From positions 6,661 through 70,660 of the forward strand of contig CAYOCH010000002.1 of the NCBI GenBank assembly GCA_964402535.1: 64,000 nt of DNA. The letters run 5' to 3'. This DNA is from an uncultured Candidatus Saccharibacteria bacterium (GTDB lineage: Bacteria; Patescibacteriota; Minisyncoccia; Phycocordibacterales; Phycocordibacteraceae). Positions 42,806 through 61,039 of the stretch are shown here, piece after piece (within the stretch, counting starts at the first letter, position 1; every line of letters begins with the position of its first letter). The position numbers and the translations under genes were made by a program. The notes under the pieces were generated by a model, which searched no databases, had not been told where the DNA came from, and saw only the letters and a program-made list of their open reading frames with translations.

Positions 42806-42823
42806 TCTGCAGACCAAAGAGAA

Positions 42824-43262: not shown

Positions 43263-46200
43263 ATGAAATCGAAGCGCGAAACGAAGGGCCTCATCTCCAC
43301 CCGCTACGCCGGAAAAATTTCGGGCTATACGTCTGCCTACTTGCGCCGCCTCGCACGCTCCGGTGAGATCGAGGGTGTGCAGGTCGGCCGCGTGTGGATG
43401 ATCCGCCAGGCCTCTCTGATTCGCTTTCTCGACGAGCAGGCCAAGCGCAAGGAGGAGCTCTCCAAGGAGCGCGCCCGCGTCCACGCCGAGGAGTACCTCT
43501 CACACCAGGCGCCGGTGAAGCGCGTAGTCGCCAAGATCGCGAAGCCGATCCCGGTCAAGAACGTCGACGTCGAGGGGCTCGTCTCGAGCTCGCGCTCGCT
43601 CGTGGTCACGGTCGTCGTGGCGCTCGTCGCTGGCACGATCGCAGCACAAGGTCTCACGCCGACGCTCACAAGGATCGCTGCGCAGCCGGCGGCGGCACTC
43701 AACGCCGGCGAGCAGATCGCCGTTGCGACCTACGAGACGATCCACGGCCTCTTCACCTCGACGACGAGTGCGCTTGCCGACCTCTTCGCTCCGGCGCCGA
43801 CGATCGTGGTACCGGCTCCGCAGATCCGCGTGAACAAGCCGCCGCTCGCAGTCGCGTCATCATCACCGACGCAGACCAAACCGAAGCAGGTCGCTATCGC
43901 TCCGATTCTCCCGGCTCCGTACAAGGAGCCGGCACCCGTTTCGTACCCGACCTACGTCACGACCATCAACGGCGTCTCGCAGAGCTATGTCGATGCCGCG
44001 GTCTCCGCGATGCGGAGCGGAATCCTCGCCACCGTCTCGGGGATGCTCGCGCCGGTCGCGCAGCAGACCGTCGTCAATCAGACGACCATCCAGCAGGTCA
44101 ACATGATCCAGCGGCTCGGCGGCCTGATCGTCGACAACGGCCAGTTCAACGGCGGCACGTTCGACAAGGGGACGATGACGAACGGCATCGCCGTGAATGC
44201 CGAGAATGCGACGTTCACGAATCTCTCGGCGGGCAACGTGAACCTGGGCGCATCGAACCTCGCGACGACGACCGTCTCGGGCGATCTCACGCTCTCGGGC
44301 GTCTTGTCGGCGAACACGAAGGCTGTCGCGCCCTACTTCGTCGCCACCGCCTCGAACGCCACCAGCACCTTTGCCGGCGGCCTTGCGGTCGGCACGCAGC
44401 GTCTCGTGGTCGACTCGACCACCGGCCGCGTCGGCATCGGCACGACCTCGCCAGCACAGACACTCGAGGTCTCGAGCGCCGGCGACTGGAGCGGCATCAA
44501 CATCACGACGACCGCCGCGGGCAACCACCAGGCGATCTCCTTCAATCACCCGGAGGGCTATCCCTTCCAGATCTTCACGAGCTACACCGGCGGGCGACCT
44601 GACACGCAGTTCTACGTCGGGAGCAGCGGGACGGTCTTCATGTCGAGCAACAAGTTGGCAGTGAACGGCGGGGCGATCCCGTCGGCATCTGAGGCAGCAC
44701 TCTCGGTCGTGCCGGTAGGCACTGAGCCTGGCTTGAACGTCAAGAATAACGTTAACGGCTCATCGTCGCTCTTGGTGACGAATCTCGGCAAGGTGGGTCT
44801 CGCTTCTACGACTCCCTGGGCGCAGCTCTCGGTGAACCCGAACGGCATCACGGGCCCCGCATTCGCGATCGGCAGCTCGACCGCCACCAACTTCGTCGTG
44901 ACGAACGGCGGGCAGGTGGGTATCGGGACGACAAGTCCGGCATACACGTTTGATGTTACCGGTAGTGCGCGGATGGATAACCTCGCAGTGTCACAGAGCG
45001 GCGGCTTCCGCGCTGTCACGGGCAGCTGGGCCGGATCGCCGAGCGGCGACAACCTGAGCTGGCTCGCATTCGGTTGGGCTGACAATACGAAATACCATCG
45101 TATCCGCACGTGCGGGTTCTCGAACGATAACTTGTGCTTCGATTTGATCAATCCGTCGACGCACTACCTCTCGATCACCGGGCAGCTGAACTCGGTCTAC
45201 GGTGCGACGATCGGCTATGCCGCGGGTACTGCCGGACCGACAAACGGCCTTGCCGTGAGCGGCTCGACAGGCATCGGCACCACCTCTCCGTGGGCGCAGC
45301 TCTCGGTTAACCCGAACGGGATCACTGGCCCCGCATTCGCAATCGGCTCCTCGACCGCCACGAACTTCGTCGTGACGAATGGGGGGAATGTCGGGATCGG
45401 GACTACTTCGCCGCAAAGCACGTTTGTCGTCAATGGCACGTCCCAGTTTACGAATAATGCTGTGTTCAATGCGCAGATCAGCGTCAGTCAGATTACCTCG
45501 CCGAATAACTTGTTGATTGCTGCAGGCGGACCACTGGTGCAGATTGCGGGTCACCTAGTGCCGCAAGTTACCGGTACATATGATTTGGGTTCTGCGAGTG
45601 CCGGATGGAGAAACGTGTATGTAACCGGGAACGTCGGCATCGGCACCACCTCGCCAAGCGCGACACTCGCAGTGCAGGGCAACGGCCTTTTCTCGGGCAA
45701 TCTCACCGCCTCGGGCAATACCTATATAGGTGCGACATCGGCGAACACCCTCACGGTGAACGCGCTCGTTAACTCTGACATCACGCCGAGCACGAACGCG
45801 GTCAACTCGCTCGGCTCGCCGAGCTTCTATTGGAAGAATGTCTACGCCGCGAACGTGATCGCCAACAACATCAGCGCCGCCTCGACCACGATCGCGGGCA
45901 CGGCCTCGGCCACCTTCACGATCAACTCGGGCAACGCGACGGCCGACACGCTCGACTCCTCACTCGTCTTCTTCCGCGGGACCGTCGTCCCGAACGCCGT
46001 TCTCGGTTGGGACTCGACCAACAAGCGCTTCACGATGAATCAGCCGCTCTTTATCCAGAACGCGTCGAATAACGGCGGCGGCGTGATCTCGCTCGCGGTA
46101 CAAGGGCTCGCTGGCCAGACCGCCGACGTCCTCCGCATCGCCTCCTCGACCGGCACGAGCTACTTGAACGTGACTGCGGGCGGGAATGTGGGGATCGGGA

Positions 46201-49200
46201 CGGCGAATCCGGGAAGCCTCTTCACCGTCTCTGGAGGGTCATCTGGTGAGCAGCAGGTGGCTTTGTTCACGAGTACCGGTTCAGCTAATACGAAGATCGC
46301 GATCGAAAATGCTGCGGTCGGCGGTCACAGGTGGGAATTGAGGTCAACATCGACCGGCACCTTCGATATCGTCGACAGAACCGCGCCTGCTCAGCGCTTC
46401 GTCATAGACACCGCCGGTAACGTCGGCATCGGCACGACCTCGCCGTGGGCGCAGCTCTCGGTGAACCCGAACGGGGTTACGGGCCCCGCGTTCGCAATCG
46501 GCAGCTCGACCGCCACGAACTTCGTCGTGACGAACGGCGGGCAGGTGGGTATCGGGACGACGAATCCGCAGCAGGCGCTGCATATCAGTACGACGAATAC
46601 GTATCAGGGCATCTTCTTGAACGGCAACGCAGCGCCCTCGATCGGGTTCGCCGGCTGGAGCGGGCTGACGCCCGCGTGGAAGGTGGGCATCAGCGGGTCG
46701 GCAGGGAGCAACTTGGCTATCAGCACCGGAGCGGCGAACGCCGACCTCTTCAACTTCACGACCGCGGGCAATCTCGGCATCGGGACGACCTCGCCGTGGG
46801 CGCAGCTCTCGGTGAACCCGAACGGGGTTACGGGCCCCGCCTTCGCGATCGGCTCCTCGACCGCGACGAACTTCGTCGTGACGAACGGCGGGCAGGTGGG
46901 GATCGGCACAAGCAATCCGACGCTCGGGACGGGCTCGACGACCCTCGAAGTCTACGGCAACGGCGGCGGCTTCACCCAGTACGGCTCGCTGTCTCTCGCC
47001 AACACTACGAACTCCGGCAGCTCCTATTCAGGCTCGGTCGACTACTACGGCGCTACCACGTTGTACGGCCAGATTCGCACGCACGTGATCACCGGCGGCC
47101 CGAGCGGTATGTCCCAGATCGAATTGTCGGCGCTGAATGGCGGCGCGCTGAATCAGGTGTTCACGGTCGGTGGCACCGGCAGCGTGACGGTCGGCACCGC
47201 AAACGGTGTGTCGAGCGGGTATCTTGGCGTCTACAACTCGGCCGGATACGGGCAGACGAATACCGGCATCATCTTGGGCAACATGCAGACGGGCGCCGGC
47301 TCGAATATCGGGGTCAACTTCGTCGACTACGCGCAGAACAACATCGCGCAGATCCTCGGCGTGTATCCGGGCGGCACCAAGGCCGGCAGCCTCGCGTTCT
47401 CGACCGGGAACGGCACGAGCCTGAACGAAGCGATGCGCATCACGAGCGCCGGCAATATCGGCATCGGTACCTCGACTCCCGCAGAGAAACTGGACGTCGC
47501 CGGGCGGCTCTCGATCGAGGATATCTCGGGCAATCCGCCGTCGGCGGCTCGGTCGTCATTTGTCTTCGAGAGCAATACGGACCCTCTCAATACGTCCGTC
47601 TCGGCGCTCTACGTGTATCCGAGGACCGACACCTCTAAGCGCTTCTATTTCGGCACGACGACGCACCAGTTCTATGCCGTCGACTTCTCGAACGTCTTGA
47701 GCATCACGGGTGTGACCAGTATCCAAGGCGCTCCCAACACGCAGGCGATCGATTTTTCATCGGCTGCGTATGACACGACCTACGGCACGGCGACGTTCGA
47801 CTTCAAGCCCACGGTCGATAACACCCGGCCGGTCGTGCTGCGCAACTCGCGCGTCACCGACAGCGCGACCTCGGTCGGCTTCGTGCTGAAGACGGTCAAT
47901 ACGCTCTCGAACGCATCGGCGAAGCTCCTGACGCTCGACAACAACACGACGAACCTTCTGACCGTCATGGCGAACGGCAATGTCGGCATCGGGACCACTT
48001 CTCCATTCGCTGACCTTTCGATTGGCGGGGCGAGCAACGGGACTAACCCGCTCTTCGCGGTCTCGACCTCGACTGCGAGCGCGACCTCGACCGCCTTCAT
48101 CATCGACAAGAACGGGAATGTCGGCATCGGGACGGCGAACCCGGGCCAGGCGCTCACGGTGAATGGCGAGATCAGCCTCTTGGGCGCATCTGGCTCGTCG
48201 CGCGGGCTCTTGGGCGCGCCGACATGGGACAACTCATACGTCTCGCTCCAGAACGGGTCGTTGAGTGAGAGCGCCGCGAACTCGGCGATCAACCAAAACA
48301 GCCTCGGTGACACGATCGTGAACGCCGCGACCGGCAGGGCGCTCCACCTGCGCGTCGGCAACACCGAGCAGATGAGCTTTAACGGCACCATCGCCGCATT
48401 CCAGAACGTGAACGTCGGCATCGGGACCACGAGCCCGGCAGACAATCTCGACGTATACGCGCCGAACAACGCGGGATTGGCGAAGATTGGACTGATAAGG
48501 GGCGATGGAGCGGGGTATCTGACGCAATGGACCTATGGCCCGGCGGGGAACGGATTCCTCGAGATCGGCGAGAACGAGGCGTTCAACAGCTCCGGCTCGG
48601 CGCGGGTACAGTTCAATACCGGAGCGCCGTCGTGGTTCCAGCAGTTCAACACCAACGTCGACAGCTATCAGATCGCACGCATCCCGGCGGGCGGCAGCAC
48701 GGCAAACGTGATGCTCTATATACAGAGTAACGGCAACGTCGGCATCGGCACCACCTCTCCCTCGCAGGCGCTCTCTGTGCAGGGCAATGGCCTCTTCTCG
48801 GGCAACATCACGGCAGCGAACATCACGGCGACTGGGACGGTGACTGCCGCGAATTTCTCCGGCCCAGGTGTAGATCCGCAAGGATATGGCAACTACTTGT
48901 CGATAAATCCTGCGACTCAGGATCTCAAATTCTCACGCGGCGGCTACTGGCTCAATTTCAATTTGACCAACAACACGCCTGTCATCACATCACAGAACAA
49001 TCTATTAGCCCTGCCTGGTATCACAGCGACATCCTCTGTATTTACGGGATACTCCGCGCAGCAAGATGTGAGTCGCTCAACGATCCTCTCGCTCACGCGG
49101 CAGAATACCGGCGCCCGCTTTCAACAAGCAGCAAACTTCATAATGGGCGGCTACGATTCGGCACAAACTGCGCATACGCAATTGGATATCGCCCTCACGA

Positions 49201-52200
49201 ACACCGCGACAAACGGCGTCCCAGACGCGACCGTGATGAGCCTCTTGGGCAACGGCAACGTCGGCATCGGTTCGACCACGCCTGCCGCGACGCTCGCGGT
49301 GCAGGGCAACGGCCTCTTCTCGGGCAACATCACAGCCGCGAACATCACTGCGACTGGGACGCTCTCGACAACCGGCGCGATCTCGGCACCGTACTTCGTC
49401 GCGACGAACGCGCTCGCAACGAGCACGTTTGCAGGCGGCATCACGGGGCCGGGCAGCTTTGCGGTGCAGCAGACGACTGGCTATGTCGGCATCGGGACGA
49501 CGTCGCCGACGAGTGCACTCTATGTCGCGGGCAATGGCCTCACATCAAGCGTTATCACGGCTGACGGAGGCGCGAACTCTATATTCGGCCTCACCGTGCG
49601 GGGCTATCAGAACTGGGGCTCGGGTGTCGCCTACACCAACCAGACTGCAAACCGTACCTACGTCACGTATCAGGACACGACAGGTAATTTCAATATCTAC
49701 GACAGCACGGTGGGGAATCGGGTCACGGTGACTTCTACCGGCAGCGTCGGCATCGGCACCACGACTCCGTTCTATAAGCTTGAGGTGAACGGCACGGTCG
49801 AGGTCGCGAACGGGAGCGGTCTTTATGCGCTCTCGTCGAGCGGCACGCACTACCGGCTCGTGGACCTCGACGCGAGCAACGTCGTGAACATGGGCCCCAA
49901 CGGCTCGATCCAGATCGCGAACGGCGCGCCCTCGAGCGCGATCTTCGTGCAGAACACTGGCTCGGTCGGGATAGGCACGAATAGCCCTCAAGTGGCGCTG
50001 CATGTAGGGCCGACGGCAGCCGGCGCGAATGAGGTCGCAAGATTCGAACATGCGAACGCTGCGGGTTCATCCGGCATCACGATCTATCAGAATGGGACAC
50101 TAAAGGGCTCTCTCGGTACTGGCGACTTCGTGGCGACTGGGGGAGCCAACACAGACTTCGGCATCCAGTCTGCTGGCAACATGCTGTTCGCTACTGGCGG
50201 TACTGTCCAAAAAATGGTGCTGACATCAGGCGGCAATGTCGGCATCGGGTCGACCTCGCCCACGAGCCTCTTGAGCGTCTATGGCGCGGCGGGGGCGGCC
50301 ACCGTCACGATCGGCTCGCCCTCGAACTCTGCGCTCTTGACGCTCGATCGCGGCTCGAACACGCAGAACGCGACCTTTAACCTCAACACCGCGGGCGTGA
50401 ATTACGGCTACTTCGGCCTCGACACGAGCGCCAACTCGGTGACGCTCGCCTCGTCGAACAACAACCAGCTCACGGTCTCAGCGCACAACGCAAACCTCCT
50501 CCTGCGCGGCGGCACGAGCAACGGCATCATCATGCAGACCAACGGCAGCGCCGAGGCGATGCGCGTCACAAGCGGCGGCAACGTCGGCATCGGGTCGTCG
50601 ACGCCAAGCGCTGTCCTCGCGGTGTCGAACACGGCCGCGACCGCCGCCAACACGCCGCTCTTCACGATCGCTTCGACGACGGGCGGCACCTCCACGTCAA
50701 GCTTGATGACCGTTCTCGCGAACGGCAACGTCGGGATAGGTACGAGCAATCCGACCTCGCCGCTGTATGTATCGGGTGCGCCTGCGTTGCAGGCGGTCAT
50801 CGGCACGACGGCGAACACGCAGAACTGGATCTCTATCATCAAGTCGAGCAGTCAGACTGCGAGCTTCGGCATCCGCGCCAATAACTACGGCTTCCTCCAG
50901 GCGAACACCGGGATGCAGATCGAGAACTCGTCGTCGCAACCCTATATCGTGTTTGACGGGGTGAACGAAGGGATCGGCACCACGTCGCCATCTGCGACGC
51001 TCGCAGTGCAGGGCAATGGCCTCTTCTCGGGCAACATCACGGCTGCGAACATCACCGCGACGGGGACGCTCTCGACCACAGGAGCGATCTCGGCGCCCTA
51101 CTTCGTCGCGACGTCGCCGACCGCGACCTCAACCTTCGCGGGCGGCGCGACGTTCGCGACGAGCGGCGGCAACGTCGGTATCGGGACAGCGAATCCAGGC
51201 TACGCACTCGACGTCGCCGGTCTTGCGGGCATCAATGGGCGAGTGAAGCTTGGCGCCGGCAACGATCAGGTGGACATTGCGAACGGTGGCCTCGTGCTAC
51301 ATGACAGCGGCACAACTGCATATGTCGAGGCGCAGAATTCTAACAAGCCGCTCGTTCTCGGTACCAGTAACGCGGATATTCAATTCACTACAGGATTCGG
51401 CGTCACAGAGCTGATGAGGATCAAAGCGAACGGGAATGTGGGGATCGGCACGTCGACGCCCGCGGCTACGCTCGCGGTCGCGATGGCGAGCACAACACCG
51501 GCCTTCTATATCGGCGCGGCAGGGAGCTCGTCGCCCGCCTTCTATGTCGGCAGCGCGAACGGGAGCGGGCTCGTGGGTATCGGCACCTCGGCACCCGACC
51601 ATCCGCTCCAGATCACCGGCAACCCGCTACTCACGAGCGCGGTCGTGCGTGTGGGCGCCGTCGCGCAGAACGTCTCTGCATTGCGCGTGAAGGGCTACTT
51701 CAACGGCTTGAACGGCAATGAGGATGCCGGCGGCGTGAACGTCTACAACTACAACTCGGCCACGGTGCAGGCGACGCTCGGCGGCGACAGCGGCCTCTTC
51801 GCCTCGCCGCGCGGCACCAACCTCGTCGCGGCGATCGTCCGCGGCCTCACCGGCCAGACAGCCAATCTGCAAGAGTGGCAGGATGTGAACGGCAATCCGC
51901 TCTCTGTGATTACGAGCAGCGGCAACCTCGGCGTGGGCACCTCCTCGCCCGCGCAGGCGCTCTCGGTCGCGGGGACGGGCTACTTTGCGACGAATGTCGG
52001 CATCGGCGTGGCGAACCCGGGCGTATATAGCCTTATGGTGCAGGCGCCGACGATCGGCGGCCAAGTCTTCGGCGTCACTACGAATTATGGCAACAGCGGC
52101 AAGTTCGAAGTCAGCTTCAACAGCGGCAACGACCCGTTCGCTCACTTGACTACTAAGCAGGGTGGACAGATCGCCTACTACGACATGTACGACTCGGTCG

Positions 52201-54920
52201 GCAAGGCGATGCAGCTTGGTCAGACATTCGGCAACGGGATCAACCTCTCGGCCTCGACGAGCATCCAGATCGGCATCGACTCGAACAATCTCGGCACCGG
52301 CATGTTCGAGATCGCAAGAGGGAACACCTGGAACGGTCGCGCGGGCGTCGACGGCACCTCGCTCTTCAAGATCCTCAACAACGGCAACGTCGGCATCAGC
52401 AACACGAATCCCTCAACCCTCCTCGACGTGAACGGCACGACCACGCTGCGCAACCAGGTGTCGGTGAATGGGGCGAGCTTCTACGACAACACCGGCAAGA
52501 TCGGGCTCGGGGTCAAGATGACGAGCGACCTCAAGACTGCGCTCTATGTCACTGACAACTTTGCGGCGATGAGCGCGATCAATGGCGCATACATCTCATC
52601 GGTCATATACGGCGCCAATACGCAGCAAGGGAAGAACGCGTACTATGGAGCCATCAATGACCCGACGCTCTCGGTGAATATCCAAAACGGTTCCGGGTTC
52701 GTGAGCTATCTCAATAACACCAACAACACCGGCACCAACATCAATCACGGCGGTCTCTTCTATCAGAATCAGACTATGAATGTGGCCAACACCGGAACCG
52801 ATTATGGCTACACCTCGTACAACTACATGCAGAGCAGCGGCAACCCGACCTCGCTTGCGAATTATGTCGGCTTCTACTCTCGCGGGCAATTCGCGGTCGC
52901 GCCGGCGACGACGACCAACCAGTACGACTTCTATGCCGACAACTTCGTGGGGACAGGTAACGGCGCGGTCGTGAACCGCTACGGCGTCTATATCGGCTTC
53001 AACAGCACCGGCATCACGAACCCCTACGGCATCTATCAAGCGAGCCCGACTGTCCAGAACTACTTCGGCGGCAACGTGGGGATCGGCACCACGACGCCCC
53101 TCGCGAAGCTCGCAGTTCTCGGCACGGCAGAGCAGCTCCGTCTCAACTACGACGCGACGAACTACGCGAGCTTCACGGTGAGCAGCGCCGGCACGCTCAC
53201 TATTGCCCCCACGTCGAACGTAATGAATATCTCGGCGACGACACTGAATACGAATACGATCAACGTCGCCACCGGCAACGTCATCAATTTCAACGGGGTA
53301 GGCTACCTCCGCAGCCTGGGCGGCGTGTTTAACATCAATGACACCAACACGAACAACATCCTTCTCGCCAATGGTGGCGGCAACGTCGGCATCGGCACGT
53401 CGACACCTCAAAACAAGCTGACGATCGTCGGCGGGATCGGCACGTTCGTTAACACCAACTCCTCCTACCGAACCGACTGGGATGCCGGCTATATGATCAA
53501 CGACAAGCTTGCGATATCGAAGTACGGCGCAATTGGCCAGCTCTCGATCGACGCACAGGGTCAGTTCGGTTCGGTAATGGTCGGAAATATCGGCAACTAT
53601 GTGAGCAATTTGCTTGTGAGCGGCAACGTGGGGATCGGGACCACGACGCCTGGGAAGAAGTTGGTTATAGATAGCGGCTCGAATGGCAATAGCTTTGCGG
53701 CAAGCTTCAGCAATGGTGGAGCGGGCAGACCATATTGGCTGTATAATTTCCAGCAGCAGAATGTGCAGTGGACTTCTGGATTCGACATTGGAGGGAATAC
53801 AAACGACTTCTCCATCAGCAATACGTACTCTGGAACCCGAGATGTTTTCCACATCGAAAACACGGCGCCTGCGAATAGTTTTAGAATCCAAGCAAATACT
53901 GGCAATATCGGTATCGGTACGACGAGCCCTTCGACCCTCTTACACCTCTACTCGGCGAGTGCGCCATCGATAACGATTGAGTCGTCTGCTGCTGGCGGCG
54001 GCGCGACCGATAGGCGTCTCACCATCAATCAGAACAATGGAGGTACGGCGACACTCACCGCGATGGAGGATGAGAACAGCTCAACTCAGGCGGCGTTCAT
54101 CATCAACGCGACTAACAATCCGAGCAACGCCGCGCTCGCGATTCGGCCCATATTCGATCTGCAGAACGGCGGCAACAGCAAGCTCTTCGTCACAGCCGCA
54201 GGCAATGTCGGCATCGGCAGTACGTCGCCGAATACGAAACTTGTTGTCTCTGACAACAGCGGCCAGACGCTCATCGGCAGCATGGCCGCTTCGTACGGAT
54301 CCATCGGTTTCCAGCCGACCCTCACCACGTCCAATTTCGCGCTCGCCGGCAACACATCTGAAACGATACTTAATACGCTCGCGGGCACGTCGCTCAAGTT
54401 CCGCGTAGCGAACGCAGACAAGATGGTTATGGACCAAAACGGCAATGTCGGCATCGGCACCACGACACCTAGCAATAAGCTGACCGTCGCAGGCGGAGCA
54501 GACTTCGGTACGGCATACAGCCCGACTGGACAGACGATACGTCTAGCGCCGAGCGGAACGTTTTCAGAAGCGGATGTCATTTCTCAAGCGGTAGGATTGT
54601 CGATCTTCGCTAATCCGCAGGCCACAGCGCAGCCGTCATGGATCGACCCGCTTATGAGTCTCCCGAACGGGGCAGGACTGATGTCGACGACGGGAGTCGA
54701 TCTGATTTTGTCCGCGTCATCTCATGCTGGCGGCGGCGTCACGATCGCCGGATATCATAACGGCGCTGCACATGACATCAAGTTCTTCAACGACGGCAAC
54801 GAACAGATGCGCCTCACGACCGCTGGTAATCTCGGCATCGGGACCTCGACGCCGGGCGCGACGATGAACGTCTACTCGGGCGCCGGGACGCCGTGGAATA
54901 CCTACCCATCAGGCACCTGA
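43263..54920 (+). CDS. giant membrane-anchored repeat protein (3885 aa): N-terminal excisionase-type HTH + TM anchor + tail-fibre-like 'GNVGIGTTSP' repeat region
   Basis: N-terminal …LISTRYAGKISGYTSAYLRRLARSGEIEGVQVGRVWMIRQASLIRFL (HTH_17-like). TM helix SLVVTVVVALVAGTIAAQGL. Then ~3700 aa of Gly/Thr/Ser/Asn-rich modules with recurrent GNVGIGTTSP(W/S)A…L(S/A)V and APYFVAT…ATSTFAGG motifs. Ends at TGA, in frame with the next ORF. Confidence 0.8.
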   Translation: MKSKRETKGLISTRYAGKISGYTSAYLRRLARSGEIEGVQVGRVWMIRQASLIRFLDEQAKRKEELSKERARVHAEEYLSHQAPVKRVVAKIAKPIPVKNVDVEGLVSSSRSLVVTVVVALVAGTIAAQGLTPTLTRIAAQPAAALNAGEQIAVATYETIHGLFTSTTSALADLFAPAPTIVVPAPQIRVNKPPLAVASSSPTQTKPKQVAIAPILPAPYKEPAPVSYPTYVTTINGVSQSYVDAAVSAMRSGILATVSGMLAPVAQQTVVNQTTIQQVNMIQRLGGLIVDNGQFNGGTFDKGTMTNGIAVNAENATFTNLSAGNVNLGASNLATTTVSGDLTLSGVLSANTKAVAPYFVATASNATSTFAGGLAVGTQRLVVDSTTGRVGIGTTSPAQTLEVSSAGDWSGINITTTAAGNHQAISFNHPEGYPFQIFTSYTGGRPDTQFYVGSSGTVFMSSNKLAVNGGAIPSASEAALSVVPVGTEPGLNVKNNVNGSSSLLVTNLGKVGLASTTPWAQLSVNPNGITGPAFAIGSSTATNFVVTNGGQVGIGTTSPAYTFDVTGSARMDNLAVSQSGGFRAVTGSWAGSPSGDNLSWLAFGWADNTKYHRIRTCGFSNDNLCFDLINPSTHYLSITGQLNSVYGATIGYAAGTAGPTNGLAVSGSTGIGTTSPWAQLSVNPNGITGPAFAIGSSTATNFVVTNGGNVGIGTTSPQSTFVVNGTSQFTNNAVFNAQISVSQITSPNNLLIAAGGPLVQIAGHLVPQVTGTYDLGSASAGWRNVYVTGNVGIGTTSPSATLAVQGNGLFSGNLTASGNTYIGATSANTLTVNALVNSDITPSTNAVNSLGSPSFYWKNVYAANVIANNISAASTTIAGTASATFTINSGNATADTLDSSLVFFRGTVVPNAVLGWDSTNKRFTMNQPLFIQNASNNGGGVISLAVQGLAGQTADVLRIASSTGTSYLNVTAGGNVGIGTANPGSLFTVSGGSSGEQQVALFTSTGSANTKIAIENAAVGGHRWELRSTSTGTFDIVDRTAPAQRFVIDTAGNVGIGTTSPWAQLSVNPNGVTGPAFAIGSSTATNFVVTNGGQVGIGTTNPQQALHISTTNTYQGIFLNGNAAPSIGFAGWSGLTPAWKVGISGSAGSNLAISTGAANADLFNFTTAGNLGIGTTSPWAQLSVNPNGVTGPAFAIGSSTATNFVVTNGGQVGIGTSNPTLGTGSTTLEVYGNGGGFTQYGSLSLANTTNSGSSYSGSVDYYGATTLYGQIRTHVITGGPSGMSQIELSALNGGALNQVFTVGGTGSVTVGTANGVSSGYLGVYNSAGYGQTNTGIILGNMQTGAGSNIGVNFVDYAQNNIAQILGVYPGGTKAGSLAFSTGNGTSLNEAMRITSAGNIGIGTSTPAEKLDVAGRLSIEDISGNPPSAARSSFVFESNTDPLNTSVSALYVYPRTDTSKRFYFGTTTHQFYAVDFSNVLSITGVTSIQGAPNTQAIDFSSAAYDTTYGTATFDFKPTVDNTRPVVLRNSRVTDSATSVGFVLKTVNTLSNASAKLLTLDNNTTNLLTVMANGNVGIGTTSPFADLSIGGASNGTNPLFAVSTSTASATSTAFIIDKNGNVGIGTANPGQALTVNGEISLLGASGSSRGLLGAPTWDNSYVSLQNGSLSESAANSAINQNSLGDTIVNAATGRALHLRVGNTEQMSFNGTIAAFQNVNVGIGTTSPADNLDVYAPNNAGLAKIGLIRGDGAGYLTQWTYGPAGNGFLEIGENEAFNSSGSARVQFNTGAPSWFQQFNTNVDSYQIARIPAGGSTANVMLYIQSNGNVGIGTTSPSQALSVQGNGLFSGNITAANITATGTVTAANFSGPGVDPQGYGNYLSINPATQDLKFSRGGYWLNFNLTNNTPVITSQNNLLALPGITATSSVFTGYSAQQDVSRSTILSLTRQNTGARFQQAANFIMGGYDSAQTAHTQLDIALTNTATNGVPDATVMSLLGNGNVGIGSTTPAATLAVQGNGLFSGNITAANITATGTLSTTGAISAPYFVATNALATSTFAGGITGPGSFAVQQTTGYVGIGTTSPTSALYVAGNGLTSSVITADGGANSIFGLTVRGYQNWGSGVAYTNQTANRTYVTYQDTTGNFNIYDSTVGNRVTVTSTGSVGIGTTTPFYKLEVNGTVEVANGSGLYALSSSGTHYRLVDLDASNVVNMGPNGSIQIANGAPSSAIFVQNTGSVGIGTNSPQVALHVGPTAAGANEVARFEHANAAGSSGITIYQNGTLKGSLGTGDFVATGGANTDFGIQSAGNMLFATGGTVQKMVLTSGGNVGIGSTSPTSLLSVYGAAGAATVTIGSPSNSALLTLDRGSNTQNATFNLNTAGVNYGYFGLDTSANSVTLASSNNNQLTVSAHNANLLLRGGTSNGIIMQTNGSAEAMRVTSGGNVGIGSSTPSAVLAVSNTAATAANTPLFTIASTTGGTSTSSLMTVLANGNVGIGTSNPTSPLYVSGAPALQAVIGTTANTQNWISIIKSSSQTASFGIRANNYGFLQANTGMQIENSSSQPYIVFDGVNEGIGTTSPSATLAVQGNGLFSGNITAANITATGTLSTTGAISAPYFVATSPTATSTFAGGATFATSGGNVGIGTANPGYALDVAGLAGINGRVKLGAGNDQVDIANGGLVLHDSGTTAYVEAQNSNKPLVLGTSNADIQFTTGFGVTELMRIKANGNVGIGTSTPAATLAVAMASTTPAFYIGAAGSSSPAFYVGSANGSGLVGIGTSAPDHPLQITGNPLLTSAVVRVGAVAQNVSALRVKGYFNGLNGNEDAGGVNVYNYNSATVQATLGGDSGLFASPRGTNLVAAIVRGLTGQTANLQEWQDVNGNPLSVITSSGNLGVGTSSPAQALSVAGTGYFATNVGIGVANPGVYSLMVQAPTIGGQVFGVTTNYGNSGKFEVSFNSGNDPFAHLTTKQGGQIAYYDMYDSVGKAMQLGQTFGNGINLSASTSIQIGIDSNNLGTGMFEIARGNTWNGRAGVDGTSLFKILNNGNVGISNTNPSTLLDVNGTTTLRNQVSVNGASFYDNTGKIGLGVKMTSDLKTALYVTDNFAAMSAINGAYISSVIYGANTQQGKNAYYGAINDPTLSVNIQNGSGFVSYLNNTNNTGTNINHGGLFYQNQTMNVANTGTDYGYTSYNYMQSSGNPTSLANYVGFYSRGQFAVAPATTTNQYDFYADNFVGTGNGAVVNRYGVYIGFNSTGITNPYGIYQASPTVQNYFGGNVGIGTTTPLAKLAVLGTAEQLRLNYDATNYASFTVSSAGTLTIAPTSNVMNISATTLNTNTINVATGNVINFNGVGYLRSLGGVFNINDTNTNNILLANGGGNVGIGTSTPQNKLTIVGGIGTFVNTNSSYRTDWDAGYMINDKLAISKYGAIGQLSIDAQGQFGSVMVGNIGNYVSNLLVSGNVGIGTTTPGKKLVIDSGSNGNSFAASFSNGGAGRPYWLYNFQQQNVQWTSGFDIGGNTNDFSISNTYSGTRDVFHIENTAPANSFRIQANTGNIGIGTTSPSTLLHLYSASAPSITIESSAAGGGATDRRLTINQNNGGTATLTAMEDENSSTQAAFIINATNNPSNAALAIRPIFDLQNGGNSKLFVTAAGNVGIGSTSPNTKLVVSDNSGQTLIGSMAASYGSIGFQPTLTTSNFALAGNTSETILNTLAGTSLKFRVANADKMVMDQNGNVGIGTTTPSNKLTVAGGADFGTAYSPTGQTIRLAPSGTFSEADVISQAVGLSIFANPQATAQPSWIDPLMSLPNGAGLMSTTGVDLILSASSHAGGGVTIAGYHNGAAHDIKFFNDGNEQMRLTTAGNLGIGTSTPGATMNVYSGAGTPWNTYPSGT
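44817..46920 (+). repeat. intragenic near-identical ~125-nt DNA repeats (family A: WAQLSVNPNG(I/V)TGPAFAIGSSTATNFVVTNGG(Q/N)VGIGT)
   Basis: Copies at ~44817, 45291, 46446 and 46797 (>90% nt identity between the last two), plus a fifth in the second ORF at ~56484. Confidence 0.7.
45652..51150 (+). repeat. intragenic ~75-150-nt repeats (family B: ATLAVQGNGLFSGNITAANITATGTLSTTGAISAPYFVAT…ATSTFAGG)
   Basis: Copies at ~45652, 48760, 49283 and 50993; the 49283 and 50993 copies are >90% identical over ~150 nt. Confidence 0.7.
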
Positions 54921-54968
54921 GCTGCGATCGTCAACCAGTCGCAGAACATTAGCGGCGGCAACGGCCTC

Positions 54969-57900
54969 GTGGTGGTCAACAAGTATCTCTCGGCCAACTC
55001 GACCACCTTCGAGGTTGGGACGATCAACGACAGCAACGGCGTCTACGCCTCATCGCTCAAGATCACGGGCGACAACGCGGTCCGCGTGCCGCTCACGCTC
55101 CAGCTCGGCAACTCGGGCGGCAACGTGACCAGTCTGCAGCTCGGCGCCAACACCTCGGTCGCGAGCGGCGCCGTGATCGCGAATATCTATAACGCCAGCA
55201 ATAATCCGGGCATCACGGTCGGTACGAGCCGCACCGACGGCACCGCCTTCACGGTCGCAAACGGGATCACTTATGACGCGAACAAGGTGCCGAACTCGGG
55301 CGGCACCGCGCTCCTCACCGTGCTCGGCGGCGGCAATGTTGGCGTGGGCACCACCTCGCCGTATGCGCTCCTCGCCCTCTCGAACTCAGTGTCGACGCCC
55401 GCTAACACGCCGTTCTTCACGATCTCGAGCACAACCGGCGGCACCTCTACCTCGACCCTCATGACCGTGCTCGCGAACGGGTACGTGGGCATCGGGACGG
55501 CGAGTCCGGGACGATTCCTGGATGTGGTGGCGAGTACCACTGCCGGGACAGAAATCGCGCGATTCACCAACACGCCTGTAAGCAATCGGTATATCTCTGT
55601 CCGCACGGTGGGCGCGTCTGATTTCGGCGGTGCGTACATCGGCGGGCCGATGTTGGACAGCAGTGATCCCCAGGTCATTTTCGGCAAGAATCTGTTACTG
55701 CCAAGTAACGGTGCGAATATAGCATTGGCTCAATCCAGCTTGACGAGTTCGTCTGCCGGGGGAACGGTGCTGACGAGCGGCGGATCGACGGCCCAAGCCG
55801 GGACAACTATCCAGCTGGGGAATAGCTCGACTTTCCAAGGGAATCTGTACGTTAAAGATGGGTCGGGGAACACGGTGATGACAGTCCAACCGACAGGTAA
55901 TGTCGGTATTGGTGCCACCGCACCAACCTCGCCCTTGACGGTCGTGACGCCCTCACTGTGGGGCAATGGGGCAGCAGGCGAGAATCTAGGCGTGACGGTC
56001 AACCCGTCGGCCAACGGCACGCTCTATGGGCTTTTTAACCTGACAAGTGTCACGGCCACGACCACGACCGGCAACGCGGCCGTCGTCGGCTCTCAGAACA
56101 CGGTGACGGCCACCAATAACAACGGCGGCAACACCACGCTCACCGCCGTCTCTGGGACGACGAACAACACCGGCGGTGGGAGCGCAAGCCAGATGACCGG
56201 CTTCTTTACGAATCCGGCGGTCTATAACACCGGTTCGTCGGTGAGCTCGCTCTATAACTTCTACGCAAACGACGTCTATCTCGGCAACGGCACCTCGCAG
56301 CCCTTCGGCTCGGTCAACAAGCTCTACGGCTATTATGTCGGTGCGCTCCAGAGCGCCTCGACCAACTACGGCCTCTTCTTCGCCAACAACCCGAACGGCG
56401 GCTCGATCGCCTCGGCCGCCTCGACCAACATCTCGATCCTGCCCGGCTCGGGCGGGAGCGTGGGGATCGGCACCACATCGCCGTGGGCACAACTTTCGGT
56501 CAACCCGAACGGGATCGCGGGCCCCGCCTTCGCGATCGGCTCCTCGACCGCGACGAACTTCGTCGTGACGAACGGCGGGAATGTGGGGATCAACACGGTT
56601 AACGCGACGAACGCTCTCACGTTCGGCGCGACAGGCGGCTATGAGATCTCGACGGAGCCGAACAATGCAAACGACCTCAACATCACGACGAACGCGACGA
56701 ACGGCGGCGGGATCTCTCTCGGTGCAAGAAACTCGAACAAATCGATCTATGTGAGTATCGGGGGTGGAGTCGGTATCGGCACGACCTCGCCGCGCGCCGC
56801 TCTTGAGATCGGCGGCAGCGCGAACCCGTCCGTCTACCTCAACTCGCAATATTCAACGCCGAGCACGATGCAGTGGTATATCCCGAACATCGCGACGATG
56901 TCGCTCGTCGCAAATGCGGTCGGGAACGAAAACGCAAACGCGCAGTGGGTCATGGACATGGGCTCTAGTGACGGCCTTACAGATTCTTTTGGCGTACTCC
57001 GCGCTAGTACCGTGGGTTCCACCCGCGTGCCGTTCTTCGTGGTGAACAACAACGGCAACACCGGCATCGGCACCACGACGCCGGGCGGCGACCTCTCGAT
57101 CGCAGGCAGCGCCGGCGGCACCAACCCGCTCTTCCTCATCTCTTCGAGTACCTCGGGCTACGCGACCTCGACCGCGTTCATGGTCGACAGTTACGGCAGC
57201 CTTGGCATCGGTCGGGTGCCGAACGCGCAGCTCTCAGTGGCTGGCGACGCCTATATCGGTACTGGCGCAGGCTCCTTCACCTTCACCTCCAACTACAACT
57301 TCAACGCACAAGGCACCAACTTCGGCCCGAGCCTCAACATCTCTGATGGCGATGCGACAAACCGCTGGGCCTCACTGCGCCTATCGACGGCGGGCGGTCA
57401 ATGGGAGATGGCCGACATGGGCGGGAACCTCGGATTCCTCCGCGGCTCGAACAATCGCGTAGTGATCGGTCGCTCCGATAGCAGCAATGCGAACCTGAAC
57501 GTCTACAACGACGCCAACACCATCCTCTTCACGGTTCAGCCGACGGGCTACGTCGGTATCGGTCCGAGCAACCCAGTTAATCAGCTCGACATCGGCATCG
57601 GGCCGTTCGCAACCGCCAAGACGGCCAACTTCAGCACCCTCAACATCGCGAACACGGCGACCTCCTCGTCGTCGTTCACGAAGACCGGCATGCAGATCTC
57701 ATCGACCGGCGCGTGGACAGGCCCGAACTACGGCCTCTATGTCTCGGCGGTCTCGGGCGGCACCAACAACTACGACGCGATCTTCAACGGCGGCGGCAAC
57801 GTCGGTATCGGCACCACGACGCCTTCGGATCTCTTGTCACTCGCTTCAACTAATCCGAGAATCGACCTGTTTGACACGAATGTTTCGGGTCCGGCGCGTG

Positions 57901-60281
57901 TCGCACTCACGGCGTATGGCGGAACCAATGCAAACGCTGCTCTGCAGACGCGTACGAATGTCCCGCTGATTTTCGGTGCAAATTCTAGTGCCAGCCAGCT
58001 CGTGCTCGCAACAAATGGCAACGTCGGCATCGGCACCACGACGCCCGGGAAGCCTCTCACTATCGCTGCTACGGGTTCCGGACCGTCTATCGGCACGGGA
58101 ATGCTTTCGCTCGTAGGTCCGCACAATACGACTGCTCGCCCTGAAATATTCTTCCAGAATTCCGCTGCCGGGACGACATATACCGGCGGTCTGCGCTGGT
58201 ATGACGGCAATGGCAACGAAGGGTGGGGTATTGAAAGCAATAGGGCCATAGGAACCGGTTATCTCGAATTCAACATTGCTGGCTCCAATAAGATGGTTCT
58301 CGACCCGTCTGGAAATGTCGGCATCGGCTCAACGAGCCCCACCTATACGCTTTCAGTTGACAAAGGCAGCGTCGGCAACCAGGCGGCATTCGGGCATACG
58401 GCCAAGGGATATCTCTATGACGACGGCACCAACTTCTGGCTTTCAAGTGCGGCGAGCGTGGCCGGCCCCGGCATAGGCTTTGCGCAATCTCTCGGTACCG
58501 CCTATCTGACCTATGCGACCGGGCAGGTAGGATTTACGATGGACAACTCTGGCAATGTCGGTATCGGCCGGAGCCCGGGCGTGCGGCTGGACGTGCAGGG
58601 TGTGAACAGCTCGTCGATCGTGCGGATTACGGCGGGCGGCGCGGGCGTCATACTCGGAGCCGACGTGGCGGGGAATGCGCTCTATGGGAACTCCGCCTAT
58701 GGCACCGCGCTGACCCTAAGCGCCGCGGGTGCCTTGCGCTTGAATGCCTATGGGGCGGGTACGCTCACGACCGATGCGAGTGGTAATGTCACGGCATCTT
58801 CCGATGCTCGCCTGAAGAATGTGGATGGAGGCTACACGCGCGGCCTCGAGGCGATACGCGGATTGTCGCCCCAGCTCTACCACTGGAACGCGGCGAGCGG
58901 ACTCGATCAGACGACGCAGTATGCCGGCTTTATCGCGCAGAACGTACGGCAGTACATTCCCGAGGCAGTCGGACAGACGCCGAGCGGTTATCTGACGCTC
59001 GCCGACCGTCCTATTGAAGCGGCGCTCGTGAATGCCGTGCAGCAGCTCGATAACCGAACGAGCTGGATCCAGGTAGCGAGCTCGAGCGCAACGACCACAC
59101 CGGTGCTCACCTTCGACCCGACGACAGGCCGCGTCGGCATCGGGTCGACCACGCCGACCCACACCCTCACGGTCGCAGGCGACGTCGGCGCGATCGCCTT
59201 CGTCAACACCTCGACACGAGACGCCAAGACTGACATCTCCTACGTGAACGCCTCGACGACCGAGGATATGCTGAACGCGCTCGTGAACCTCAAGGTCGCG
59301 ACCTATCACTACAAGGTCGAGCCCGAGACCGATCCGCTCCGCCTCGGCTTCATCGCAGAGGATGCAGCTAAGATCGCGCCCGAGATCCTCTCGCCGGACG
59401 GCAAGGGCGTCGACCTCTACAAGCTCGCGACCTTCACGCTCGCCGGCGTCCAGTCGCTCGCTGCGAAGGTCGATGTGCAAGGGACCAAGATCACCTCGCT
59501 TGAACAGCGCGTTGCGGCGCTCGAGAGCGGGGCAGTGTCGGTGGGCAGCTCGGCGCCGCAGCTCTCGACGAGCTCGCTCGCGAGCGCGATCTCGAGCATC
59601 ACGGAGGTCCTCAATATCGGCAAGCTCGTGTCGCAGACGTTCTATGCGGCGCAGGGCTTCTTCGACCGCTTGACGGCGGCGAACGCGACGATCGGTTCCT
59701 CGTCGACGCCGTCTGGCGTAACCTTCTTCGACACGGTTACCAAGCAGCCGTTCTGCTTCACGATCGCGAACGGAGTACCGACCACGACGCCGGGCGTCTG
59801 CGCCACCTCGAATGAGACGACCAATCCGTTCGCGACGTCGACACCGGCTGCTGCTGCAGCGACGAGCTCGCCGATCTCGGTGCTCGGCGCCAACCCGCTC
59901 CTGCTCGCGGTCGGGGCGACCTTCACCGACCCTGGCGTCACGGTCGCGAGCGGGGCAGCGGTGACCACATTCGTGAACGGCATACAGCAAGTGGTCTCAT
60001 CGACGACGATCAGCACGCTTAGTCCGACGACCTATATCATCACCTACCAGTCAACTGACGCCACGGGCGCACTCATATCGGCGACTCGCTCGGTGATAGT
60101 GGGGAACCCCGACGGCACGGTCTCGACCGGCGTTTCGACGACGACCGCTACCAGCACACCGATCACGATCCAGACGGTTGCGACGAGTACCACAGCCTCG
60201 TCTAGCCCGATCACGATCACTCCGGTCGACACCACCACAACCGCCTCAACGACATCCGCCACCTCAACTTCTGCACTTTAA
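54969..60281 (+). CDS. C-terminal part (1770 aa) of the giant repeat protein: repeats + two tandem S74 intramolecular-chaperone domains + DUF5011 Ig-like domain + Thr/Ser tail
   Basis: Same frame as 43263..54920 with no stop in the 48-nt gap; only a GTG start. Shares repeat families with the upstream ORF. S74-like domains: SDARLKNVDGGYTRGLEAIRGLSPQLYHW…GFIAQNVRQYIPEAV…GYLTLADRPIEAALVNAVQQLD (~58800-59090) and DAKTDISYVNAS…LKVATYHYK…LGFIAEDAAKIAPEIL…GVDLYKLATFTLAGVQSLAAKV…LEQRVAALE (~59220-59560). DUF5011-like …PGVTVASGAAVTTFVNGIQQV…TYIITYQSTDATGALISATRSVIV (~59880-60110). Confidence 0.75.
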   Translation: MVVNKYLSANSTTFEVGTINDSNGVYASSLKITGDNAVRVPLTLQLGNSGGNVTSLQLGANTSVASGAVIANIYNASNNPGITVGTSRTDGTAFTVANGITYDANKVPNSGGTALLTVLGGGNVGVGTTSPYALLALSNSVSTPANTPFFTISSTTGGTSTSTLMTVLANGYVGIGTASPGRFLDVVASTTAGTEIARFTNTPVSNRYISVRTVGASDFGGAYIGGPMLDSSDPQVIFGKNLLLPSNGANIALAQSSLTSSSAGGTVLTSGGSTAQAGTTIQLGNSSTFQGNLYVKDGSGNTVMTVQPTGNVGIGATAPTSPLTVVTPSLWGNGAAGENLGVTVNPSANGTLYGLFNLTSVTATTTTGNAAVVGSQNTVTATNNNGGNTTLTAVSGTTNNTGGGSASQMTGFFTNPAVYNTGSSVSSLYNFYANDVYLGNGTSQPFGSVNKLYGYYVGALQSASTNYGLFFANNPNGGSIASAASTNISILPGSGGSVGIGTTSPWAQLSVNPNGIAGPAFAIGSSTATNFVVTNGGNVGINTVNATNALTFGATGGYEISTEPNNANDLNITTNATNGGGISLGARNSNKSIYVSIGGGVGIGTTSPRAALEIGGSANPSVYLNSQYSTPSTMQWYIPNIATMSLVANAVGNENANAQWVMDMGSSDGLTDSFGVLRASTVGSTRVPFFVVNNNGNTGIGTTTPGGDLSIAGSAGGTNPLFLISSSTSGYATSTAFMVDSYGSLGIGRVPNAQLSVAGDAYIGTGAGSFTFTSNYNFNAQGTNFGPSLNISDGDATNRWASLRLSTAGGQWEMADMGGNLGFLRGSNNRVVIGRSDSSNANLNVYNDANTILFTVQPTGYVGIGPSNPVNQLDIGIGPFATAKTANFSTLNIANTATSSSSFTKTGMQISSTGAWTGPNYGLYVSAVSGGTNNYDAIFNGGGNVGIGTTTPSDLLSLASTNPRIDLFDTNVSGPARVALTAYGGTNANAALQTRTNVPLIFGANSSASQLVLATNGNVGIGTTTPGKPLTIAATGSGPSIGTGMLSLVGPHNTTARPEIFFQNSAAGTTYTGGLRWYDGNGNEGWGIESNRAIGTGYLEFNIAGSNKMVLDPSGNVGIGSTSPTYTLSVDKGSVGNQAAFGHTAKGYLYDDGTNFWLSSAASVAGPGIGFAQSLGTAYLTYATGQVGFTMDNSGNVGIGRSPGVRLDVQGVNSSSIVRITAGGAGVILGADVAGNALYGNSAYGTALTLSAAGALRLNAYGAGTLTTDASGNVTASSDARLKNVDGGYTRGLEAIRGLSPQLYHWNAASGLDQTTQYAGFIAQNVRQYIPEAVGQTPSGYLTLADRPIEAALVNAVQQLDNRTSWIQVASSSATTTPVLTFDPTTGRVGIGSTTPTHTLTVAGDVGAIAFVNTSTRDAKTDISYVNASTTEDMLNALVNLKVATYHYKVEPETDPLRLGFIAEDAAKIAPEILSPDGKGVDLYKLATFTLAGVQSLAAKVDVQGTKITSLEQRVAALESGAVSVGSSAPQLSTSSLASAISSITEVLNIGKLVSQTFYAAQGFFDRLTAANATIGSSSTPSGVTFFDTVTKQPFCFTIANGVPTTTPGVCATSNETTNPFATSTPAAAAATSSPISVLGANPLLLAVGATFTDPGVTVASGAAVTTFVNGIQQVVSSTTISTLSPTTYIITYQSTDATGALISATRSVIVGNPDGTVSTGVSTTTATSTPITIQTVATSTTASSSPITITPVDTTTTASTTSATSTSAL

Positions 60282-60295
60282 CGATACTCTGCTCT

Positions 60296-61039
60296 GAATG
60301 AAGGACATCGTATGTCCTTCATTCAAGCTTTTCGTAAGGCTTGAAGCTCGAATCTGAATCGCGGAGATATTCGTGAATGGACACGGAATAGCTTCCGAGA
60401 GCGTCTTTGAATAGCGTCGGTGATAAGAGGGAAGGGAAGTTGTGTTCACCAGTATAATCCGGATAGCTGCTCCAACGATACGTACGCAAATATTTCAAAG
60501 CATCATCCACATTTCGTATTCCAGCCTTCTCGCGTAGACGCCACTGTTCAGCCCCTGGTAGATAATCAAGCGGATTCAAGTGAATGTAGTGAAGGATGTA
60601 CAAGAAGTGCGAGTCGCGGTCGATCAGAATCTTCTTGGTGCGGCCCTGGAAGAGAGTGCCGCTGCGTGAATATCGCTCGTTGAAATATTTTGCGTAGCCG
60701 ACGTTGAGCTTTCGTAAGAAGAGGCTCATGGCACCGTCGACGCGTTCGCTCAACAGCAGGTGGTAGTGATTTTTCATCAGTACCCAGCCATGGATGTCGA
60801 CTAGCAGCTCCCGCGGTTCCCTAAATGAAGGACATACGAAGTCCCTCATGGCAGTCGGGTCAAATAGGCGCCACACGTTGTCTGCGGGTGCTGTATCGTT
60901 AAACTCATAGAGATCGTGCACGAAGCGAGCGTAATCCTGGGTATCAAGGAACAAATCTCTCCCCTCAACGCCGCGATTTAGGACGTGCCAAAGTTCCATA
61001 TACATCATGATACATGAAGGACATACGATGTCTTTCATG
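60296..61039 (-). mobile_element. second IS200/RAYT-like element: Y1 transposase flanked by ~27-nt hairpins
   Basis: Perfect hairpin GAATGAAGGACAT-CGT-ATGTCCTTCATTC at 60296-60324 and CATGAAGGACAT-ACG-ATGTCTTTCATG at 61013-61039; a degenerate third copy lies inside the gene at 60823-60849. Confidence 0.6.
60319..60999 (-). CDS. IS200-like Y1 (HuH) transposase / RAYT, copy 2
   Basis: HuH motif MKNHYHLLL, …FQGRTKKILIDRDSHFLYILHYIHLNPL…; divergent homolog of 40149..40850. The track start 61038 lies inside the flanking hairpin, so the internal ATG (MELWHVL…) is preferred. Confidence 0.65.
   Translation of the reverse strand: MELWHVLNRGVEGRDLFLDTQDYARFVHDLYEFNDTAPADNVWRLFDPTAMRDFVCPSFREPRELLVDIHGWVLMKNHYHLLLSERVDGAMSLFLRKLNVGYAKYFNERYSRSGTLFQGRTKKILIDRDSHFLYILHYIHLNPLDYLPGAEQWRLREKAGIRNVDDALKYLRTYRWSSYPDYTGEHNFPSLLSPTLFKDALGSYSVSIHEYLRDSDSSFKPYEKLE

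Follow-up and report, generated by a model that had tools for sequence, protein, structure and literature searches.

Why should a bacterial gene of about 17 kb carry copies of the same DNA segments dispersed along its length? The locus that raises this question occupies positions 43263-60281 of a 64,000-nt stretch of contig CAYOCH010000002.1 (GenBank assembly GCA_964402535.1, positions 6,661 to 70,660 of the forward strand; this whole stretch is hereafter called the window) from an uncultured Candidatus Saccharibacteria bacterium. An original prediction, made from the sequence alone, described near-identical repeats of 75-150 nt that would allow recombinational expansion or contraction and thereby antigenic or size variation, and that are a classic cause of assembly collapse. 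The analysis described here led us to a different emphasis. The gene is likely to encode a giant surface fibre of Patescibacteria (of the Parcubacteria/Paceibacteria type) that resembles the mosaic adhesive trimer (MAT) fibres of Bdellovibrio and tail fibres with a Peptidase_S74 (S74) domain, with its repeats being reused modules of a phylum-wide kit that are kept similar by purifying selection and, to a minor degree, by gene conversion.

Repeats were detected by self-BLASTN of the region 43263-60281, which returned 41 off-diagonal direct matches. Thirteen of these, 81-159 nt long, were each at least 82% identical and hence above the ~80% nucleotide identity that had been named in advance as the level by which the repeats should be judged. 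Three repeat families are present far beyond chance. The matches of family A lie at 44814-44939, 45270-45406, 46410-46568, 46761-46919 and 56463-56591, and its five copies share pairwise nucleotide identities of 84.9-92.9% over 111-159 nt (E-values 1e-32 to 2e-58). A 26-mer shared within this family starts exactly at 44817, 46446 and 46797, and together with the self-BLASTN result it places the families where the original prediction had put them. Four copies make up family B (45626-45713, 48729-48839, 49251-49406 and 50958-51113; 82-86% identity), and the module C pair (50572-50744 and 55327-55499) is 73% identical with four gaps required. The description of the copies as near-identical suits the best A pairs only (copies 3 and 4 are 95% identical over 125 nt) and not the remaining copies; synonymous divergence (dS) between A copies is 0.2-0.58. 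Similarly, the >90% identity over ~150 nt claimed for the B pair at 49283 and 50993 was too high a figure, as the identity of the pair is 85.3% when 150 nt are compared, 88.8% for 125 nt and 91% only for 100 nt. With 351-9,687 nt between copies and identities of 73-93%, the repeats are dispersed and not arranged head-to-tail. The individual module copies, all on the forward strand, are:

44811..44939 (+), module A copy 1 (TPWAQLSVNPNGITGPAFAIGSSTATNFVVTNGGQVGIGTTSP), by self-BLASTN, peptide and dS comparison, and alignment
45285..45413 (+), module A copy 2, by self-BLASTN, peptide and dS comparison, and alignment
46440..46568 (+), module A copy 3, well predicted in the AlphaFold2 (AF2) model
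46791..46919 (+), module A copy 4, a mosaic with its 5' half like copy 3 and its 3' half like copy 5
56478..56606 (+), module A copy 5, in the second open reading frame (ORF2), 9.7 kb from copy 4
45626..45713 (+), module B copy 1 (..GNVGIGTTSPSATLAVQGNGLFSGNLTA..), which has diverged furthest among the B copies
48729..48839 (+), module B copy 2, by self-BLASTN
49251..49439 (+), module B copy 3, long form, through ..ISAPYFVAT..TSTFAGG
50958..51146 (+), module B copy 4, likewise of the long form
50572..50744 (+), module C copy 1 (..TAANTPLFTIASTTGGTSTSSLMTVLANGNVGIGT..), the same peptide being present in other genomes
55327..55499 (+), module C copy 2, in ORF2

All A, B and C copies are in frame, and each codes for a short peptide module. 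Module A is a 41-residue peptide, SPWAQLSVNPNG[IV]TGPAFAIGSSTATNFVVTNGG[QN]VGIGT; module B reads ..LxVQGNGLFSGNITAANITATGT.., two of its copies extending through ..ISAPYFVAT..TSTFAGG; and module C reads ..ANTP[LF]FTI[AS]STTGGTSTSxLMTVLANGxVGIGT. Every module is bounded by a junction motif, h-x-h-x-x-x-G-N-V-G-I-G-T-x-x-P-x-x-x-L-x-V, which in the form [NS]-V-G-I-G-T-x-x-P-x-x-x-L is found in ~50 copies at an irregular spacing of 41-190 residues. At the DNA level there are 33 exact direct repeats of at least 20 nt (longest runs 62, 56, 44 and 38 nt), all 33 of which are offset by multiples of 3. Elsewhere in the window, neither exact repeats of at least 20 nt nor a comparable motif-bearing frame were found.

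The frame in which these modules lie is interrupted once, and the gene with its predicted domains is laid out as follows:

43263..54920 (+), ORF1, 3,885 codons, the N-terminal 69% of the giant gene, ending at an in-frame TGA
54918..54920 (+), the single in-frame TGA at the ORF1/ORF2 boundary, where the peptide reads on as ...YPSGT*AAIVNQSQNISGGNGLVVVNKY...
54969..60281 (+), ORF2, which starts at a GTG, has 1,770 codons in the frame of ORF1 and carries the S74 and immunoglobulin (Ig)-like domains
43290..43439 (+), winged helix-turn-helix (wHTH), predicted to be cytoplasmic (Pfam HTH_17, E=1.2e-4, below the gathering score)
43593..43655 (+), one hydrophobic helix (SLVVTVVVALVAGTIAA) predicted to anchor the protein in the membrane (AF2 helix at amino acids 111-129)
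43980..44102 (+), long helix at amino acids 240-280 in the AF2 model, the neck of the predicted ectodomain before the first beta unit
58800..58970 (+), S74 intramolecular chaperone/protease domain with the catalytic-type motif S-D-A-R-L-K (PF13884, E=9e-20, ORF2 amino acids 1278-1334)
59169..59378 (+), second, degenerate S74-like stretch with STRDAK in place of SDxxxK (Pfam; phrog_17524 at amino acids 1401-1503)
59874..60101 (+), bacterial surface Ig-like domain (PF16403, E=6e-9), followed by a Thr/Ser-rich tail
60295..60325 (+), 14-bp hairpin terminator 3' of the giant gene, a strong hairpin

The fifth A copy had been assigned to a second ORF, and it does lie there; this ORF, however, shares the frame of ORF1 and is set off from it by one TGA. 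The joint frame of 5,672 codons contains this one stop and no frameshift. We read ORF1 and ORF2 as effectively one gene of ~17 kb because there is a single TGA in a common frame with sensible read-through, because no promoter-like or terminator-like site was found between the two, because ORF2 has no Shine-Dalgarno sequence, signal peptide or transmembrane (TM) segment, and because the homologous protein P0040 holds an N-terminal HTH, S74 and Ig-like domains in one chain. The TGA itself, a codon that serves as the stop of ordinary genes elsewhere in the window, may have arisen by nonsense mutation or by an error in sequencing, or it may be a leaky stop. A change from TGG to TGA appears plausible since the peptide context of the stop (..PSGT*AAIV..) resembles ..AGDWSGINI.. 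at ORF1 amino acids 405-413. Recoding or read-through of TGA as a habit of the family was considered and rejected, as only one other comparable interruption (a TAA) was seen among 108 long motif-bearing frames drawn from the window and 122 related loci; a third adjacent frame pair in that set resembles a true gene boundary. The TAA is located at ~16283 of locus L044, where a related giant fibre frame is broken in frame and the fibre continues behind it (..GGTGAA*RLTILGGGNVGV..). When the junction region was searched for close relatives in which the TGA and the copy number of the repeats could be checked, none was found in genome or metagenome contigs. As written, the distal part of the window's gene would have no export signal.

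The relationship of the protein was assessed from its repeat region. A profile of amino acids 1030-1233, which cover two A modules with the intervening unit, matched the MAT chains of Bdellovibrio bacteriovorus with E-values of 1.3e-31 (Bd2133), 1.7e-16 (Bd1334), 3.3e-13 (Bd3182) and 5.7e-9 (Bd2439), and the alignments were centred on ..GNVGIGTxxPxxxLxV... The structures of these four MAT proteins of the S74 subgroup (Bd3182, Bd2133, Bd1334 and Bd2439; PDB 8OJN, 8OND, 8OML and 8OL4) have been solved; MAT fibres are intertwined trimeric beta-helices on the surface of the predator, formed by proteins of ~1,000 amino acids with or without a C-terminal S74 domain (Caulton et al., Nat Microbiol 2024, PMC10769870). 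The same segment of the window's protein was predicted by AF2 to be all-beta (mean predicted local distance difference test score, pLDDT, 78.5). ORF1 also matched the PHROG tail-fibre families phrog_9942 (E=1e-67) and phrog_18345 (E=5.6e-59). The repeat units are covered by neither Pfam nor NCBIfam; a NCBIfam scan gave no match to the protein, and a phmmer search of ORF2 against PDB sequences gave none either.

Further structure prediction was applied to the N-terminal part. In the AF2 model the order is wHTH, long helix, TM helix, more helices and a disordered Pro-rich linker, with beta structure from ~amino acid 300. As the overall pLDDT of this model is 63, it was used only for the confidently predicted HTH (residues 10-48, pLDDT ~97) and for secondary structure. 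The neck region is conserved in the alignment of homologues and in 48 metagenome loci, and the HTH-TM head is common to most homologues (e.g., P0001, P0003, P0004 and P0007). A fold of DNA-binding type is there fused through a TM helix to a giant, predicted extracellular fibre. At the other end, the S74 domain is not C-terminal, with ~490 residues following it. One further GRVGIGSTTP unit sits between S74 and the degenerate S74-like stretch, and a probable coiled stretch (..KITSLEQRVAALESG..) was noted between the latter and the Ig-like domain. The order of S74 followed by an Ig-like domain recurs in the homologues P0021, P0040 and P0057. In the homologues P0002, P0040 (amino acids 780-1094) and P0035, mid-fibre sequence contains an intein splicing domain in which an NYN domain is embedded; the window's gene lacks it.

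The modules recur across the phylum. Module A was found in 162 stretches of species-representative genomes of Patescibacteria, of which 74 were kept as loci, and in 544 representative proteins of a library of 1.84 billion proteins (E<=1e-10 for 271). A single protein contains up to 12 copies and is up to 7,920 amino acids long; three of these proteins (P0208, P0234 and P0277) have 7,214-7,920 amino acids and thus exceed the product of the window's gene in size. Modules B and C occur nearly verbatim in other genomes. The number of A copies ranges from 1 to 10 across related genomes, and in three loci of Paceibacterota JBAZXD01 (L006, L027 and L048) ten A copies are 100% identical in protein and 76-100% identical in DNA, which indicates extreme constraint at the peptide level and, in at least one case, a duplication or conversion of very recent date. 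The homologues come from metagenome bins of Parcubacteria, Kaiserbacteria, Paceibacterota and Minisyncoccia and are nearly all annotated as partial. The ORF1 protein is identical to P0183, which forms a singleton cluster and comes from an NCBI contig of 94,941 nt, and no relative closer than ~56% amino acid identity was present in the collections searched. A profile of the N-terminal part recovered the 48 metagenome loci mentioned above, each at 49% identity or less, and exact look-ups of ORF1 and of the neighbouring DnaB returned no contig on record.

Comparison of synonymous and nonsynonymous change was used to determine where the DNA identity of the copies comes from. The A copies differ by a dS of 0.2-0.58 and a nonsynonymous divergence (dN) of 0.03-0.15, the B copies by a dS of 0.46-0.82, and dN/dS between copies is ~0.1-0.35 (typically ~0.2). 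On these dS values neither the A nor the B copies are recent. As a calibration, A copies from unrelated genomes with a G+C content at third codon positions (GC3) of at least 0.7 were compared with those of the window; their DNA identity averages 79% with a maximum of 88.6%, against 84-94% among the A copies within the window. Independent draws of codons from the gene's own usage predict 75-79% identity, and the observed values exceed this expectation by z=2.6-4.8 for A and 1.5-3.3 for B. In view of the divergence between copies, the phylum-wide occurrence of the modules and the calibration with unrelated genomes, protein constraint, together with GC3 bias, is the main cause of the DNA identity and accounts for most of it.

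Some exchange between copies has probably taken place in addition. The informative sites of copies A1-A5 contain the incompatible splits {A3,A4}, {A1,A3}, {A4,A5} and {A2,A5}, so that no single tree fits them. In a Sawyer-type permutation over the 49 polymorphic sites of the A alignment, the sharing of runs gave p=0.008 for A1-A3, 0.013 for A4-A5 and 0.03 for A3-A4 (global p=0.03). The exact run of 62 nt joins A copy 4 in ORF1 with copy 5 in ORF2, 9.7 kb away, and that of 56 nt joins copy 4 with copy 3. The excess of identity makes some exchange in the past, or a recent shared ancestor, likely; together with the exact runs and the mosaic sharing of variants it points to limited, patchy gene conversion among the copies in the past. 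The junction motif was also considered as a recombination signal at the DNA level, and this was ruled out by its identity of 0.837 against 0.827 +/- 0.015 expected from codon usage.

These results bear directly on the possibility that the gene is an active contingency system, in which RecA-type recombination between the in-frame copies or the ~50 junction motifs would generate variation in fibre length or antigenicity. Since the repeats are in frame, recombination between copies would keep the frame, and the 33 exact repeats of 20-62 nt, the mosaic sharing of variants (permutation p=0.008-0.03), the nucleotide identity above the codon-usage expectation and the variation from 1 to 10 A copies among related genomes can all be read in its favour, as can the description of the MAT family as chimeric with swapping of tips (PMC10769870). 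Against this, the copies differ by 7-27% and are scattered instead of standing in tandem, their dS of 0.2-0.58 implies long independent histories, the junction motif is not homogenised at the DNA level and no silent cassettes were found. We therefore regard an active contingency system as unlikely. Of the recombination and variation originally proposed, the in-frame repeats suited to recombination and some past conversion (z=2.6-4.8, p=0.03) are retained, whereas recency and function were overstated. Many Patescibacteria carry diversity-generating retroelements (DGRs), whose repeats are ~100-150 nt long; that the copies are template and variable repeat pairs of such an element has next to no probability, as the mismatches affect all four bases with no adenine bias whichever copy is taken as template, no reverse-transcriptase match was obtained among the ten flanking ORFs scanned, and the modules are conserved instead of hypervariable across genomes. 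The mismatch spectrum refutes the DGR reading.

It is also very improbable that the repeats, and perhaps the TGA, are collapsed or chimeric joins of the assembly. The family does appear to trouble assemblers, since a contig ends within the module-A frame in 42 of the 74 related loci and most homologues are annotated as partial, and a lone in-frame stop in an otherwise open frame of 17 kb would be in line with an artefact. Every copy in the window, however, has unique flanks and is distinct from all others, the frame is held over 5,672 codons without a frameshift, the order of modules is like that of homologues from other assemblies, and the exact repeats of at most 62 nt are below the typical size of reads. 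The expected assembly trouble is thus indirectly supported for the family, with no sign of collapse in the window. Extremely unlikely, finally, is a prophage tail-fibre gene in place of a cellular one. Such an origin would agree with the PHROG tail-fibre matches and the S74 domain, but the wHTH and TM anchor are conserved in cellular homologues, the flanks are housekeeping genes with no other phage genes among the ten flanking ORFs scanned, and 17 kb is far above the length of typical fibre genes.

The known systems nearest to the window's gene were compared feature by feature. MAT fibres share with it the capping loop that closes each unit, sequence and fold homology in the solved fibre domains, an S74 domain with SDxxxK, the mosaic modular build and a bearer that lives on other bacteria. 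The published capping loop has the consensus V-G-G/N-pi-X-X-P-X-X-X-L, the tips are chimeric, and the N-terminus consists of a signal peptide and a conserved beta domain of 130 amino acids (PMC10769870). The window's gene differs in being 5-6x longer (5,672 codons vs ~1,000 amino acids), in that the published motif is one residue shorter between V-G and P, and in that S74 is followed by an extra unit, the degenerate S74, the coiled stretch, the Ig-like domain and the Thr/Ser tail. Its N-terminus departs from the MAT arrangement by its wHTH, TM segment and helices, as seen in the AF2 model. Phage fibres and tailspikes with S74 (K1F endosialidase, T5 L-shaped tail fibre pb1) have the S74 domain and the PHROG tail-fibre families in common with the window's gene, which is in contrast cellular, membrane-anchored, located in a housekeeping neighbourhood and far larger. 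The window's fibre is thus a giant, differently anchored variant of the known MAT/S74 tail-fibre-like kind. No description of this fibre family in Patescibacteria was found in the literature searched (on the motif, on giant proteins of the candidate phyla radiation, and on MAT outside predators).

Two other classes of surface protein were rejected. The Alp/Rib family and the variable lipoproteins of Mycoplasma are repeat-rich surface proteins with tandem, essentially identical, recombining repeats. Like them, the window's gene is predicted to encode a large protein of the cell surface, and recombination between its in-frame internal repeats is conceivable in principle; unlike theirs, its copies are dispersed over 12 kb, 7-27% diverged and of substantial synonymous divergence, and a size-variable protein of the tandem-repeat type was ruled out by these dispersed and diverged copies. 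Trimeric autotransporter adhesins (YadA-like head, NSVAIG-type repeats) have a superficially similar short Gly-rich beta-turn motif, and among the homologues P0012 has a precomputed YadA-stalk match and another is named 'outer membrane autotransporter'. The motif recurs every ~14 amino acids in those adhesins, compared with 41-190 amino acids in the window's protein, and membership was rejected as there is no Pfam match to a YadA head, stalk or anchor (E<=0.01) and no C-terminal beta-barrel, the anchor being the N-terminal TM helix.

Taken as a MAT-/S74-like fibre, the protein would be organised as a cytoplasmic winged HTH, a TM helix, a helical neck, ~50 beta units, the S74 domain and an Ig-like tip region, with each beta unit closed by a G-N-V-G-I-G-T-x-x-P-x-x-x-L capping loop. 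The repeats would have arisen by intragenic duplication of modules, with very strong purifying selection then acting on their peptides under a GC3-rich codon usage, and with patchy gene conversion between copies accounting for a smaller share of the DNA similarity. The N-terminal TM helices of three chains may fix these in the membrane and leave the wHTH on the cytoplasmic side, and the C-terminal S74 domain may nucleate trimerisation of the triple beta-helix and then cleave itself off at the SDxxxK serine. Bd2133 and Bd3182 rise by 0.4-0.7 A per residue (PMC10769870), and the resulting fibre would by rough extrapolation measure ~0.2-0.4 um, close to one cell diameter in such bacteria. Contact with the surface of a host cell would be made by the variable units between the capping loops and by the distal domains, modules A, B and C being more likely structural or partner-binding elements than determinants of specificity because they are invariant between genomes.

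Several points weigh against this proposal. Trimerisation, autocleavage, surface location and host attachment are carried over from MAT and S74 precedents; the N-terminus (wHTH, TM segment and helices) is unlike that of the Bdellovibrio MATs; and S74 is neither at the extreme C-terminus nor in front of the TGA, so that the anchored product as written would be without the S74 chaperone. The signal of gene conversion derives from 49 polymorphic sites with a global p of only 0.03. Moreover, A copies of the same genome share amino acid variants (identity 0.92 vs 0.81), and this sharing is equally compatible with homogenisation and with lineage-specific amplification. A more far-reaching scheme, which we put forward as speculative and quite unlikely, is that Patescibacteria build host-contact fibres from a near-invariant kit of ~40-residue modules whose in-frame DNA copies permit cassette shuffling to tune length and order within populations, with the nonsense codon acting as an on/off or truncation switch and the wHTH signalling contact across the membrane.

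For the recognition of and attachment to hosts by uncultured Patescibacteria of the Parcubacteria type, the locus reveals very large relatives of the prey-recognition fibres of Bdellovibrio and of phage tail fibres. Published work on host attachment has centred on Saccharibacteria, with type IV pili and adhesins that are not named as its main subjects (PMC11665869). The conserved module kit can be searched for, and it offers candidate host-range determinants and a handle for annotation at the level of motifs. The case also illustrates that nucleotide identity within a gene can be nearly all a shadow of protein conservation and should be calibrated against unrelated genomes before recombination is invoked, and that giant fibre genes are frequent break points of metagenome assemblies.

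The giant gene is flanked by RmuC, a Y1 transposase-like gene, a DEAD helicase, RecR, DnaB, a penicillin-binding protein and a Mur ligase. Two paralogous Y1 genes (IS200-like/REP-associated tyrosine transposase-like; 40149-40850 on the forward and 60319-61038 on the reverse strand) are inverted relative to each other, 36% identical and both below the curated cut-offs, with the DEAD helicase and the giant gene lying between them. A perfect 12-bp hairpin between an A-run and a T-run (AAAAGAGGCGGA..TCCGCCTCTTTT) is located at 42823-42850, 3' of the DEAD helicase and upstream of the giant gene, and looks like a bidirectional terminator.

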